Below, piece after piece: positions 16,457 to 34,647 of a stretch of 64,000 nt of DNA. The stretch is from contig CAVRCI010000002.1 of NCBI GenBank assembly GCA_963719495.1, positions 736,001 through 800,000 on the forward strand. Direction: 5' to 3'. How positions within the stretch are numbered: the stretch's first letter is position 1; each line of letters begins with the position of its first letter. The translations under genes and the position numbers were made by a program. Source of the stretch: an uncultured Verrucomicrobiae bacterium (GTDB taxonomy: Bacteria > Verrucomicrobiota > Verrucomicrobiia > Chthoniobacterales > JAATET01). The notes under the pieces were generated by a model. The model had not been told where the DNA came from. It was given only the letters and a program-made list of their open reading frames with translations, and did no database searches.

Positions 16457-16483
16457 TTCTGAACCAATGAACGGACTGACCCC
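16457..16483 (+). repeat. REP-like motif TTCTGAACCAATGAACGGACTGACCCC
   Basis: Identical at 34621-34647; one mismatch in rc at 24088-24114; variant near 21310. Confidence 0.85.
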
Positions 16484-17378: not shown

Positions 17379-17495
17379 TTAGAAGCAGGCGGAAGAGTAG
17401 ACTGGCGGCTTTTTTTGGGGCGTCTCCGAACATTATGGTGTTTGCCCTCCGACAGTGCAATCAGGAATAAGGAATGGGGTCAGTCGAGAATGGCA

Positions 17496-19398: not shown

Positions 19399-19417
19399 TG
19401 CCATTCGGGTCAGTCCG

Positions 19418-19683
19418 GAATGGCACTGTTTTAAGCCGATTTTCGGTGAAGAGCGCAAGGCGGTGAGGACGGCTTGGCAGGCCGTCCCGCGCGAGATCAT
19501 TGGCAACCGGGGTCTTTTCGATCAACGCTGGCGGTGTTGGTGGGGTGAGCGCGAAGTTGTAGCGGCGCGTCTGTGACCGCCGCGAACCATCTCGCTGAGT
19601 TTGCGCACCCGAGTCTGACGGCACCGGCGGTCACAGACCGCCGCTACAGCCCTGCCGACGATCCGCTTAAAACAGTGCCATTC
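19418..19683. mobile_element. MITE with IS4-type ends carrying a REP-like hairpin
   Basis: Both ends GAATGGCACTGTTTTAAGC; internal inverted pair TGTAGCGGCGCGTCTGTGACCGCCG / CGGCGGTCACAGACCGCCGCTACA (about 19559-19648). Confidence 0.8.
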
Positions 19684-19694
19684 CGGACTGACCC

Positions 19695-21249
19695 GAATGG
19701 CACTGCTTTAAGCCAGTTTTCGGGGAGAAAGATGGAGGGAGATCCGCTGATTTGGTAGATTAAAGTGTGAGCAGCAACCAACCATTTCTCAGCGGATTCC
19801 CAACTCAAATATGTGGCAGAATGCGGCGGCGTCTGCAAGCGGTCATCGCGGAGCGACGGAGCGCATTGGCAGAGTCATCCATAGCGACCTACGCGCTGCA
19901 GTTTTCCCGCATCCTGCCGGCCGATTTTTTGGAGTCACTCTCGCTCACGCAACGGGTTCGGCAGTATTGCAATGTGGTCGTCTTCTGGGTGTGGCTGGCT
20001 CAGATTTTAGAGGCCAATGCGTCGCTCTCCAAAGCGGTGAGTCTGGTCCAATGCTGGTGCGGCGAGGCGGGTCTGCCAGTTCCCAGTGGGGATACCGGAG
20101 CCTTCAGTCGGGGTCGGGGACGACTCGGAGAGGCGTTTCTGGCCGGGGCGAGCCAACGCGTGCGCACTCATCTGGGAGCCCGGATCAGGCCCGAGGATAC
20201 TTACAAAGGACACGTGGTCAAATCCATCGACGGCAGCTCGTTGACTCTGGATGACACAGCGTCCAATCAGGAGCAATATCCGCAACCCACGAGCCAGAAA
20301 GCGGGTTGCGGCTTCCCGGTCATGGGCATCATGGGCGTGCTCAACCACGCCCATGGCGGATGGGAGGATTTCGTTGAAGGGCTGCAGAGCGCGCACGATG
20401 CACCGATCTTTCACAAGCTCATGCACTGCTTCGAACCCGGGGATTTACTTTGCGGTGATCGCGCTTTCTGCACCTACGAGTTGATGTCCACTCTGGACCA
20501 AAGGCAGGTCCATACGCTCATGCGTTTGCACCAATCCCGGCACCGCGTCCTGAACTGGAGCCGTGGCAAAAAGCTCGGCAAGCACCAACGCCTGGTTACT
20601 TGGAAGAAGCCCGCTAAACGCCCCGTGGGCAGCACCTTGAATGATTTGGAATGGGCGGCACTACCCGAAGAACTCCAAATCCGTCTCATTCGCTTTGAAT
20701 ACAAGGATCGCGCCGGGAGCAAACGCCGCATGGTCCTGGCCACGACCATGACTGACTCCCTTCGATACGACTGGCGCGAACTGGCCGCCATCTACGCCCA
20801 GCGCTGGGACATCGAACTACGTCTGAGGGACGTGAAAACCACCCTCGCCATGGATCACCTGCGCGTCAAAACGCCCGCGACCGCCCGCAAGACTCTCACG
20901 ATGAGTTTGATCGCCTACAACCTTCTCAAGGCCACCAGCCAGCAAGCCGCGCACAGCACCGGGCAGGACCTCCGACTCATGAGTTTCAAAGCCACTCTGG
21001 ACACCATCGTCGCCAACACCGCTCGCTACCTCCGCCGTCAAAAACACGCCCGCCTCATCAAGGAAATCTGGTCCGACACCATCGAAATGATCGCCGCAAA
21101 AATCATCGATCTCCGCCCCGGCAGGCACGAACCTCGTGCCCAGAAGAAGCGACCTAAAAACTTCAGTTATCTCACCGCTCCTCGCGCTCTCTACCAAGAA
21201 ATCCCTCACCGCGGCAAATCCCGATCCTTCGCTTAATGCAGTGCCATTC
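19695..21249 (+). mobile_element. IS4-family element no. 2
   Basis: TIRs GAATGGCACTGCTTTAAGC / GCTTAATGCAGTGCCATTC; perfect 11-bp DR CGGACTGACCC. Confidence 0.93.
19767..21236 (+). CDS. IS4-family DDE transposase, apparently intact
   Basis: SIDGSS, CGDRAFC, YAQRWDIELRLRDVK. Confidence 0.92.
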   Translation: MSSNQPFLSGFPTQICGRMRRRLQAVIAERRSALAESSIATYALQFSRILPADFLESLSLTQRVRQYCNVVVFWVWLAQILEANASLSKAVSLVQCWCGEAGLPVPSGDTGAFSRGRGRLGEAFLAGASQRVRTHLGARIRPEDTYKGHVVKSIDGSSLTLDDTASNQEQYPQPTSQKAGCGFPVMGIMGVLNHAHGGWEDFVEGLQSAHDAPIFHKLMHCFEPGDLLCGDRAFCTYELMSTLDQRQVHTLMRLHQSRHRVLNWSRGKKLGKHQRLVTWKKPAKRPVGSTLNDLEWAALPEELQIRLIRFEYKDRAGSKRRMVLATTMTDSLRYDWRELAAIYAQRWDIELRLRDVKTTLAMDHLRVKTPATARKTLTMSLIAYNLLKATSQQAAHSTGQDLRLMSFKATLDTIVANTARYLRRQKHARLIKEIWSDTIEMIAAKIIDLRPGRHEPRAQKKRPKNFSYLTAPRALYQEIPHRGKSRSFA

Positions 21250-21360
21250 CGGACTGACCCCTTTGATGACCCCTTTGACTGACCCCTTTGATGAACCGAC
21301 CCCTTCGATGAACCAATGAACGGACTGACTCCTTCGATGACCCCTTCGACAATGAACGGA
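21250..21360 (+). repeat. Degenerate tandem GACCCCTT(T/C)GA repeats mixed with REP-like motif copies
   Basis: Seen directly; continues beyond the IS110 at 22955-23002. Confidence 0.8.
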
Positions 21361-21362
21361 CT

Positions 21363-21661
21363 TCTCTGAAAAAAGGGTCGAAGGGCTGTCAAGGGTCTAA
21401 TTTAGAGGGTTCTTGGACCGAGTGGGGCATGGGACGCAGAAGAAAGCGCCCAATGGGTGACCATCAGGGCAGGGAAAAGCGCGGGCTCTTACATTAAGGG
21501 AAGGAGCCTGTAAACTTGGGACGATAGCGATGCTGGAATCACACTTCTCTGCGGGGCGGGCACTTCTGGCCCCCATCCATTGTGGCGATCAGATCCCCAG
21601 CCCTCCATCCTGACCCAAGGTGCGCCGACTAAGTGCTAAGACTTAGCGACCAACCAGTCGT
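21363..21661 (-). ncRNA. Putative bridge/seek RNA region of the IS110 element (boundaries approximate)
   Basis: Contains GGGTCAG (target left half plus core, 21610-21616) followed by CAGAGAAG (donor left half plus core, 21544-21551). Confidence 0.65.
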
Positions 21662-22873
21662 TCATTGGAGCGGCTGGGGAAATTGTTTTCGAGAAGATCG
21701 ACTTTGGCGTCCCTGGCGTTTTTTCGGGGTTTTCATGTTGCCAGGTTTTTCCTTGGCCAAGCCTGGTTTGGACGAGATTTGTTCTTCCGCGTTGCGGCTC
21801 TGGCTTTGAAGTTTTTGGGACTCGGGAAAGTTCGTGTAGGAACGCCCCTGGGTCAAGAGGCTGCAGGTGATGCGGGCCATCCGGCGGGCGGTGGCTAGGA
21901 TGGCGGTGTTGGCTTTCTTGCCGTGAGCGCGTTTGTTTTTGTAGTAGTCGCCGAAGTAGGGCGAGCAGCCAACAGCCACCCAGGCGGCCTCGACGAAGGC
22001 CCAACGCAGCCATTTGTTGCATTGGGGCAGCAGGCGTCCGTGGTAGGTCTTGCCGCCGCTGCTGCTCGTCGCCGGGCAGAGTCCCGCGTAGCCGCAGAGC
22101 TTCTGCGCGGAGGCAAAGCGAGAGATGTCGTCGATCTCGGCGACGACAACCGCGGCCAGGATGGGTCCCATCCCGGGGAGACTGCAGACGTGGGTGAGCT
22201 CGGGGCTTTGGCTCATGAGATCTTTGAGCGCTGCCTCGTCCTGCCGGATGCGAGCGACCAACTCGTTGTGGAGGGCGAGTTGCTGGGTCAGGAGCATGCC
22301 TGCTGGTTCGGCCAACTCGAGCTTCTCCAAGAACCCCAGCCCCTTCTTGCCGAAGAGATCGCTACAGACAGGAAGTTTGAGTTCGTGCTGGCCGCCGAGT
22401 AACCGGTGGATGCGGTTGCGCAGCATCGTGCGTTGGCGCACGAAGAAACAGCGCTGGCGCAGCACGTTCTTGATGTCGCGGGTCTCGCGACTGGGGATGT
22501 GGACGCTCGAAATCAAATTGGCCCGCAACAGATTGGCCAACGCTCGGGCGTCGATCTTATCGGTCTTGATTTGGGCCTCGGCGATGATCCGCGTCTTAAA
22601 CGGGTTGGCCAACACGATGTTCTCGGCGGGCATCACCTGCTCGAGAATCTCGTAGAGCCAGTGCCAGTTCATGCTCGCTTCGAAGACGATCCGGCACCCC
22701 GGCCACCGCTCGACGAGCCGCCCAAAATCTCCGCTGATCGCGTGCTCGATGCGCCCTTGGCCGAGCACCTCGCCGTGGCCATCAACCACGCAATAGACGC
22801 TGTATCGCTTGTGATAATCGATGCCAATGAAGCTCGATTCCGTCGGTAGGCTTTTTGGTTGGGTTTTCATCAC
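21662..22873 (-). CDS. IS110-family DEDD recombinase/transposase
   Basis: FIGIDYHK, VFEAS, KTDKIDA, LPGMG, YAGLCP..SSSGG. Confidence 0.95.
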   Translation of the reverse strand: MMKTQPKSLPTESSFIGIDYHKRYSVYCVVDGHGEVLGQGRIEHAISGDFGRLVERWPGCRIVFEASMNWHWLYEILEQVMPAENIVLANPFKTRIIAEAQIKTDKIDARALANLLRANLISSVHIPSRETRDIKNVLRQRCFFVRQRTMLRNRIHRLLGGQHELKLPVCSDLFGKKGLGFLEKLELAEPAGMLLTQQLALHNELVARIRQDEAALKDLMSQSPELTHVCSLPGMGPILAAVVVAEIDDISRFASAQKLCGYAGLCPATSSSGGKTYHGRLLPQCNKWLRWAFVEAAWVAVGCSPYFGDYYKNKRAHGKKANTAILATARRMARITCSLLTQGRSYTNFPESQKLQSQSRNAEEQISSKPGLAKEKPGNMKTPKKRQGRQSRSSRKQFPQPLQ

Positions 22874-23002
22874 CCCAACCTACACCATTCATTTCATCAG
22901 GCTCTCCGGGCCCCACTTCCCAGCAACGCTCTATTCATCAGCCTTTCATGCCGCCTGACCCCTTCGAGACCCCTTCGAGACCCCTTCGACGGGCCCTTCG
23001 AC

Positions 23003-23178
23003 AGGAAATGCTCTGCCACGCCTCGCTTCTCACCACGCAGGTTCACACCCGCGTCGTCCCCTCCGATCTCCAGCGCGTCCACAAGTTCACCGCCCCCAGC
23101 GAACGCCGTGGCGTAATCGACGTCCCCACCTTCGAACTCCACGCCTGGCGTGATCGCAAGAACCGTCACCGCTCCTGA
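23003..23178 (+). pseudogene. C-terminal remnant of a XerC/D-like tyrosine recombinase
   Basis: QEMLCHASLLTTQVHTRV..DLQRVH matches QELLGHxSxxTTQxYT with G to C and catalytic Y to H. Confidence 0.75.
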
Positions 23179-23215
23179 TCCGGTCTCGCTCCAACTCCTT
23201 CCCAGCCGTAATCTC

Positions 23216-23698
23216 ATGCCCGTGCGCACGCTCCCGCTCTACCTCGACACCTCCGTCATCGGCGGCTACTTCGACGACGAGTTCGAGGAGGCTACCCGCG
23301 AACTCTGGCGGCAGAAAAAAGCCGGGCGCTTCCGGTTTACGACCTCGGCGGTGACCCGGCAGGAAATCGAGGAAGCTCCGGCCGACGTGCGCGAGTTGAT
23401 GGAAGAGACGTTCCCCGACGCCGATCTCCTTCCGCTCACCGCCGAGGCCATCGAGCTGGCCCGCGCCTACCTCGACGCCGCGGTCGTCCCGGAAACCTAC
23501 GCCGACGACGCCCGGCATGTCGCCATCGCGGTCGTTCACGAACTCCATCTGCTCGTTAGCTGGAACTTCCGTCACATGGTCAACGTCCGCCGATCGGATG
23601 CGTTCAACGCCGTGAACCTCTTGCAGGGTTACCCCCCAATCCGTATCGTTAGTCCGTTGGAACTCATCTATGACGACGAAGAAGAACAAACGCTTTGA
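23216..23698 (+). CDS. PIN-domain protein (putative toxin)
   Basis: LYLDTSVIGGYFDDEF, DDARHVAIA, LVSWNFRHMVN. Confidence 0.88.
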   Translation: MPVRTLPLYLDTSVIGGYFDDEFEEATRELWRQKKAGRFRFTTSAVTRQEIEEAPADVRELMEETFPDADLLPLTAEAIELARAYLDAAVVPETYADDARHVAIAVVHELHLLVSWNFRHMVNVRRSDAFNAVNLLQGYPPIRIVSPLELIYDDEEEQTL

Positions 23699-24053: not shown

Positions 24054-24114
24054 GGCCAGTCGGAGGGGTCAGTCCGGGCCAGTCGGAGGGGTCAGTCCGT
24101 GCATTGGTTCAGAA
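24054..24114 (-). repeat. REP-like motif (reverse) preceded by a 23-bp tandem duplication
   Basis: GGCCAGTCGGAGGGGTCAGTCCG twice, then TGCATTGGTTCAGAA. Confidence 0.8.
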
Positions 24115-34620: not shown

Positions 34621-34647
34621 TTCTGAACCAATGAACGGACTGACCCC
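34621..34647 (+). repeat. REP-like motif copy between convergent genes
   Basis: Identical to 16457-16483. Confidence 0.85.

Follow-up and report, generated by a model that had tools for sequence, protein, structure and literature searches.

How does an insertion sequence find the terminal repeats of another mobile element, and can its address be read from its own DNA? The question is raised by an IS110-family element in the window, the 64,000-nt stretch of contig CAVRCI010000002.1 analysed here (assembly GCA_963719495.1, positions 736,001 to 800,000) from an uncultured Verrucomicrobiae bacterium. Comparison of the element with its relatives makes it very probable that it is an intact IS with a predicted two-loop bridge RNA encoded at its downstream end and likely guiding the recombinase into the terminal inverted repeats (TIRs) of TIRtrons. 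Table 1 gives the positions.

Table 1. Features of the IS110-family element and of its target in the window
Feature	Position	Strand	Basis or remark
IS110-family element, 1594 bp, including one core dinucleotide (22955-22956) constant in all copies	21363..22956	-	ends common to five full copies
Short subterminal inverted repeat, left, TGAAA, 6 nt inside core	22944..22948	-	sequence; 50 elements have 4-8 bp, most often 5
Short subterminal inverted repeat, right, TTTCA, 4 nt from end	21367..21371	-	sequence
TTGACA, -35-like hexamer, 24 nt from right end	21387..21392	-	TTGAC in 60/62 right ends, mostly at 14-15 or 24 nt
DEDD/Ser recombinase, 403 aa; D19, E65, D105, D108, S272; last ~55 aa a variable basic tail running into the RNA	21662..22873	-	
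Predicted bridge RNA core, 142 nt	21537..21678	-	target-binding loop 21678-21596, donor-binding loop 21595-21537
Right target guide (RTG), ATGAACGACT; pairs with core and inner TIR; overlaps TGA stop 21662-21664	21656..21665	-	covariation z=11; 11/14 independent pairs
Left target guide (LTG), GGGTCAG; TIR tip and core	21610..21616	-	switches together with flank
Likely handshake guide of target loop, GA; first base = first base of left end	21608..21609	-	z=7.7; 5/5 independent pairs
Right donor guide (RDG), GCCAC; pairs with GCGGC, 4 of 5	21582..21586	-	z=7.3; 7 wins, 0 losses, 4 ties
AATGGAT, no guide for the target; the inner donor-loop stem begins with its GG (21577-21578)	21575..21581	-	
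Left donor guide (LDG), CAGAGAAG	21544..21551	-	matches right end and core
Possible donor-loop handshake guide, TG	21542..21543	-	fits all six sites in genome; weak family-wide, z=1.9
Inner part of target TIR fragment and target core, CAATGAACGGA-CT, family A TIRtron end	21350..21362	+	
Target TIR tip, GACCCC	22957..22962	+	
Empty family A TIR copy	16457..16483	+	
Empty family A TIR copy	34621..34647	+	

The element, its copies and its junctions

Five full copies are present in the genome, at 94.8-96.6% nucleotide identity to the window copy, and a sixth insertion is a 125-bp right-end fragment (C7). In element orientation the left junction is GGGTC-AG-GCGGCA in 5/5 full copies, and the six right junctions consist of TCAGAGA followed by AG-TCCGTT (window), GG-TCATTC (C14 twice, C9 and C7) or AG-TCGATC (C4). 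All six insertions lie at GGGTC-RG-TC or its right half, and the five full copies, all at GGGTC-RG-TC, occupy related sequences, as the first-pass annotation of this DNA had expected of guided insertion. CT stands at both 21361-21362 and 22955-22956. Once the element and one CT are taken out, the sequence again reads AATGAACGGA-CT-GACCCC, a motif that is uninterrupted at 16457 and at 34621 and is found 22 times genome-wide (the window's empty site, AATGAACGGACTGACCCC, has 22 occurrences in the genome). Duplication of CT is not universal: three of the five full copies and the C7 fragment have, in element orientation, AG on the left and GG on the right. Insertion is site-specific at a two-nucleotide core with the empty site restored, as in the IS110 family, and the AG/GG core mismatch is tolerated. 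At C14:86950-90900 (G000) two copies lie 2 kb apart in near-identical MITEs of about 110 bp belonging to repeat family B (see below), a pair that is possibly a segmental duplication; at C7:83312-83435 (G000) the right-end-only fragment (125 bp) is adjoined on both sides by a family B MITE.

The gene product is an IS110 recombinase by PF01548 and PF02371, and scores 227 bits with NF033542 (cut-off 140). Its catalytic residues are intact: D19, D105, D108 and S272 were counted, E65 was read from the motif, and D105/D108/S272 align with D102/D105/S241 of IS621, to which the protein is distantly related (E 2.5e-10). The best plasmid matches are 38-40% identical, and there is no named IS among them. 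Six nucleotides before the ATG stands the hexamer TAGGTT (TAnnnT; 22877-22882, minus strand), possibly a leaderless promoter; similar hexamers recur in relatives.

Homologous loci, those with names being mostly from Verrucomicrobia, were drawn from genomes (37), metagenomes (63) and a 401-genome phylum sample (7 more). Together with the five own copies, 112 loci were matched, 78 of them with the RNA region; two were dropped before counting (L015, in which the RNA is interrupted, and L016, in which no RNA was found), and merging of identical rows left 70. L080 and L082 have mis-called left ends, and were kept in the 58-element guide counts and excluded from the LTG and RDG pair tests.

To which group of the family does the element belong? 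Its non-coding sequence is 299 nt downstream and 81 nt upstream of the gene, the long downstream region being that of the IS1111 group, as is the order of guides, in which the match to the top strand comes first in the RNA. IS1111 elements are described as having subterminal inverted repeats that measure 7-17 bp, most often 11-13, and carry 7/3-nt extensions. The repeats here are 5 bp, and 4-8 bp in 50 elements, of which 6 reach at least 7 bp. Because its inverted repeats are too short, we file the element as IS110 family, IS1111-like, and not as a member of IS1111. The IS1111 circle-junction promoter has its -35 in the right end and its -10 in the left end; TTGAC stands 14-16 nt from the end in 41/62 relatives, a spacing that fits this pattern, and 24 nt from the end in 18, the window element among them, a spacing that does not, and the -10 is not evident. 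The circle-junction pattern was found neither in viral contigs nor in 111 loci, contigs of four DNA runs contain near-identical elements with other flanks and no end-to-end joint, and among the sequencing runs no RNA run is listed as containing the stretch; these blanks are not evidence either way.

A predicted bridge RNA with two loops

What does the downstream end encode? A four-helix model fitted to 40 homologues, in an alignment extended into the end of the ORF, pairs 94.6% of cells; 22 of the 35 pairs have changes on both sides, none of 500 shuffles reaches the model, and slid controls reach 37-49%. The target-binding loop is closed by a 12-bp stem, the 5' strand of which lies inside the ORF, and the stop codon falls within or beyond this 5' stem in 66/70 elements. 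The consensus ensemble leaves each of the four guides unpaired (0.93-1.0). RNAalifold, given the extended alignment, called the target loop alone unaided; the stems of the donor loop were drawn by hand and by symmetry, and then counted. A two-loop bridge RNA, with internal loops bearing target and donor guides as in the IS110 family, is well supported computationally as a predicted structure, with an alternative hairpin possible at its 3' end. Single-sequence folding of the window RNA is no better than shuffles (z=+1.09), nor is folding of the range that had been proposed earlier, rc(21363-21661) (z=-0.71), which omits the 5' stem of the RNA and part of the RTG. An RNAalifold stem obtained on a 5'-truncated alignment, A2, was rejected as partly an artefact of that truncation, and a nested single-hairpin layout with the RTG after the LDG was dropped, the upstream guide and its closing stem having been found. 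Rfam gave no match at E<=1.

The order of guides on the predicted RNA is RTG, hairpin, LTG, and then RDG, hairpin, LDG. On the strand that bears the CT core (the plus strand of the window), this layout is that of IS621: long guide, hairpin, short guide, handshake bases. In that CT-core frame the RTG corresponds to the left target guide of IS621.

Guides change together with their sites

The RTG consists of the 8 nt before a conserved CT, on the 5' side of the first hairpin, and pairs with the right flank. Elements match their own flanks at 4.81 of 8 positions and shuffled flanks at 2.81 (n=58, z=11), and one element per distinct guide gives the same picture (n=31, z=10). Among relatives, TTGCACA-CT accompanies the flank TGTGCAA, GCACGGA-CT accompanies TCCGTGC and TTATCGC-CT accompanies GCGATAA; ATTGCACACT is another guide found at this position. 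For the LTG the scores are 4.71 and 3.75 of 5 (n=58, z=8.7), and guide and flank switch together: GGGTC-AG with GGGTC-AG, TTAAT-AG with ATAAT-AG, TAATA-AG with TAATA-AG, and GGGAC-AG with GGGAC-AG. In 90% of the 58 elements, against 48% when shuffled, the base that follows the LTG GGGTCAG is the one with which the left end begins, in agreement with the published handshake with donor position 7. The five nucleotides of the RDG pair with the start of the left end (4.05 against 3.33, n=58, z=7.3). Since kin are not independent, elements were also paired on disjoint paths of the recombinase tree and their own sites compared with swapped ones; own beats swapped by 11:1 for the RTG (2 ties, p=0.003), 7:0 for the RDG (4 ties) and 3:0 for the LTG. 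The LDG and its partner, the right end with the core, are invariant across the family. RTG, LTG and RDG thus covary with targets or donors in the manner of IS110 guides.

These results bear out part of the first-pass decoding. It had recognised GGGTCAG at 21610-21616 as a guide, which is correct, and had placed CAGAGAAG rightly at 21544-21551, where it is the left donor guide; both are unpaired, and the former covaries with its flank. The annotation had also judged no right donor guide convincing by eye, and none was spotted in that way; the covariation picks out GCCAC (21582-21586). Its wider claim, a natural IS110 bridge recombinase with target, donor and guides readable from the sequence, is supported by the predicted structure and by covariation of guide and site.

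Its remaining guide fared otherwise. AATGGAT had been taken as the right target guide, pairing through two G:U wobbles in an RNA read in IS621 order in element orientation and aimed at the single repeat AATGAACGGACTGACCCC. The heptamer can pair with 7 nt of the window site. It does not covary with its flank (own site 2.47, shuffled 2.51 of 7 in 58 elements, z=-0.6), and loses or ties in 14 of 18 tree pairs (4 wins, 6 losses, 8 ties). It is identical in the five copies though their right flanks differ (TCCGTT, TCATTC three times, TCGATC), and the same heptamer stands beside many different right flanks across the family. Its GG pairs in helix 4. Moreover, 4/6 insertions fall in a different family of repeats: the target is no single repeat, and ends belonging to at least two families of TIRtrons are hit. 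This reading is almost certainly wrong. The decoding was half wrong because it read the element's own orientation in IS621 order; in this RNA the guide to the top strand precedes the other.

The targets in this genome are ends of TIRtrons

What is the repeat that the element enters? To judge from its sequence, it is the terminal inverted repeat of TIRtrons or TIRYT, elements with an HUH/Y1 transposase. Such elements (TnpA-Y1 subclass 2.1) are described as having GGGGWSAS-tipped inverted repeats and a long Y1 transposase with Y---NP (PMC3733652; bioRxiv 10.1101/279083), and the TIRYT consensus tip is given as GGGG[AT][CG]A[CG] (PMC3733652, bioRxiv 279083). The target tip fits this consensus, and the family B tip, GGGGTCGG, is one base off. 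Family A TIRs flank a 332-aa Y1 gene (C11:169361) and family B TIRs a 311-aa Y1 gene (C13:310175); at both loci a Y1 HUH transposase with Y---NP lies between TIRs with tips of the GGGGWSAS kind, and Pfam did not detect the C-terminal HTH of subclass 2.1. Three further TIR families (C-E) have the same GGGGTC tip, and of 12 PF01797 matches genome-wide, 7 are flanked by GGGGTC repeats or adjoin one.

GGGTCAG would read the conserved tip of the TIR, and ATGAACGACT would read its inner part, fitting family A (with one DNA base looped out) and family B (one mismatch, one wobble) and not families C-E. The RTG has one mismatch with the C4 site, and one mismatch and a core wobble with the family B sites; with the window's own site it matches 3 of 8 positions ungapped, and scores 7.5 if one DNA base is looped out. 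We infer this one-base bulge, which gives a continuous match at the window site, and the bulge cost in the scoring was set after that site had been seen. A genome scan using just the guides covered 2867 GGGTC[AG]G sites. Of these, 69 score at least 7, and 66 of the 69 belong to TIRs of family A or B; the six insertion sites all have scores of 7-7.5 (the bulge cost being post hoc). Families C, D and E score 2.5-4.5 and carry no insertion, six events being few; the two families that were hit are the two best fitted by the guide.

Across the family, the identity of the targets as TIRtrons is partly shown, by sequence comparison. Left flanks of elements guided by GGGTC or GGGAC fit GGG[AT][CG]A[CG] in 46/49 cases and the full consensus in 36/49. 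Short homologue loci contain a Y1 gene in 5/57 cases and an inverted TIR copy in 9/57. When up to 8 Y1 loci were read in each of 10 host genomes, an intact TIRtron bearing the site's own TIR was recovered in 2, other families in 5, and none in 3. The host of L020 (G409) has 58 PF01797 matches, most of them in frames of 350-500 aa that match the first half of the profile only. A subclade (L017, L030, L031, L051-L053, L066, L069, L071, L086, L087 and L091) lies off TIRtrons, and its targets are palindromes, CAATAAT-N-ATTATTG with a variable spacer, which we take to resemble tyrosine-recombinase (dif-like) sites.

Ends of TIRs also form arrays of fragments of variable length (window 21249-21350 and 22957-23001; C11:170300-170440; C1:166260-166420), each fragment ending in GACCCC followed by the same 5-nt flank (TTCGA/TTTGA in the window), and the window insertion is inside one such fragment. 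IS4-family elements and their MITEs, with ends AATGGCAC..., are found at TIRtron tips too, 29/50 end-pattern matches abutting the motif genome-wide; in the window this is seen at 17476-17490, 19405-19420, 19681-19697 and 21249-21261. These IS4-family insertions apparently have repeats of about 11 bp, of GGGTCAGTCCG/TCGA, and the C4 copy of the IS110 element is inside such a repeat. Adjoining the window element is a PIN-domain ORF (23150-23698, plus strand; PF01850 below cut-off), with a family A TIR on either side, at 22957 and at 24088.

What else might direct insertion

Could the tip alone suffice? A half match of GGGTCAG, together with recognition by a protein or host factor, for instance of DNA opened by the TIRYT enzyme, would then select the site, and the RTG would be a passive copy of an often-visited sequence. 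Half-match recombination has been reported for IS621 (bioRxiv 2026.08.31.748434), the sites of L059, L083, L021, L042 and L077 fit their own RTG poorly, and the presence of the unrelated IS4 family at tips (29/50 end-pattern matches) suggests a general hot spot. Against this, the RTG tracks the right flank in 11/14 independent pairs, and families C, D and E possess the tip and carry no insertion, although six events are few. We regard targeting by the tip alone as improbable.

It is somewhat less unlikely, though we do not favour it, that the target loop works by itself, as a seekRNA-type RNA trimmed to about 85 nt, the donor loop being dispensable or used for circle formation only. ISEc11 moves with a short seekRNA (PMC11187229), an RNA with the target-binding loop only supports one-end transfer by CazIS110-1 (bioRxiv 2025.10.25.684509), and the target loop is the stronger fold here. 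However, RDG and left end change together (z=7.3; 7:0 among tree pairs), and compensatory changes are seen in the donor stems, which argues that the donor loop is under selection. A working target loop is also compatible with a two-loop bridge RNA, the explanation that we prefer, and the readings are not exclusive. By analogy with IS621, ISEc11 and CazIS110, the RNA would bind the recombinase, the element would form a circle, and the CT strand would be cut 3' of the core and then exchanged. The likely benefit to the element would be a supply of about 70 intergenic landing sites.

Unlike cores and the strand of integration

Unlike cores occur in six elements with both junctions (C14a, C14b, C9, L001, L067 and L087), all with AG on the left and GG on the right, and in 6/6 every junction retains the core of the 5' partner on the CT strand. 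This is the product expected if the CT strand alone, cut 3' of the core, is carried through, as has been reported for CazIS110-1 (bioRxiv 2025.10.25.684509). C14a and C14b may be one event, leaving about five, for which a sign test by hand is near 0.06. There is a counter-example, a 13-nt left-end remnant at C13:681104 with GG on the left; it lies inside an array of family B TIR fragments (C13:681090-681135, G000), and reflects either the transfer of a single end or the copying of a TIR fragment out of an end that was occupied.

Relation to known systems and significance

With IS621 and ISCro4 (IS622) (PMC11208160, PMC11208158; PDB 8WT6, 9T56), the window element shares the DEDD and Ser recombinase, the CT core, a pair of pseudo-symmetric loops in each of which two guides flank a hairpin, and a handshake base that matches donor position 7. 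It differs in that its RNA is downstream of the gene and overlaps it, and that its core is AG in gene orientation. The target core is CC in 4/6 insertions here, whereas the second T is described as almost invariant in IS621 (PMC11208158). The IS1111 seekRNA elements ISEc11, ISPa11, ISKpn4 and ISPst6 (PMC11187229) are alike in having the non-coding region downstream of the gene, a top-strand guide before the bottom-strand guide, and naturally reprogrammed relatives, but have subterminal repeats of 11-13 bp and end offsets of 7/3 (5 bp and, counting the core, 8/4 here); unlike for those elements, donor guides have been decoded for the window element. Bridge RNAs are predicted in 86-93% of catalogued IS110 members (PMC11208160; related work in PMC13626964 and bioRxiv 2025.05.14.653916). 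Homing on the ends of other elements is a known habit, reminiscent of IS4321 and IS5075, IS110-family elements that land in the terminal inverted repeats of another mobile element (Partridge and Hall 2003), there a Tn21-family transposon and here a TIRtron (HUH/Y1).

The machinery is ordinary, the known mechanism is left unchanged by this element, and the choice of TIRtrons as target alone was not found in print. The accessible text of PMC3733652 has no mention of IS110, and that of bioRxiv 279083 has one, unrelated; neither reports IS110 insertions in TIRtrons. Our literature search, made in the text of papers, found none naming TIRtrons as IS110 targets; supplements and ISfinder may include the clade. 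The Durrant Supplementary Tables reportedly hold many predicted targets.

Could a Verrucomicrobia-centred IS110 clade be a dedicated parasite of TIRtrons? Its address would have two parts: one guide, which is fixed, would read the conserved tip, and the other, which changes fast and is written into the end of the recombinase gene, would choose the TIRtron subfamily. Its core-mismatch insertions would record top-strand-only integration. We propose this tentatively, as a possibility somewhat short of an even chance. If it is true, unlike cores match a single-strand paste-in model, and a symmetric two-strand exchange would not predict them.

The element adds a predicted bridge RNA that is fully decoded and has the downstream (IS1111-like) layout. 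Several reprogramming events have occurred naturally, and provide a ready panel for testing the rules on bulges, core mismatch and handshake bases. Since the target loop starts within the coding sequence, mining or cloning that begins only behind the stop codon would miss a guide. The finding also links RNA-guided insertion sequences to TIRtrons, a little-studied class of HUH elements.
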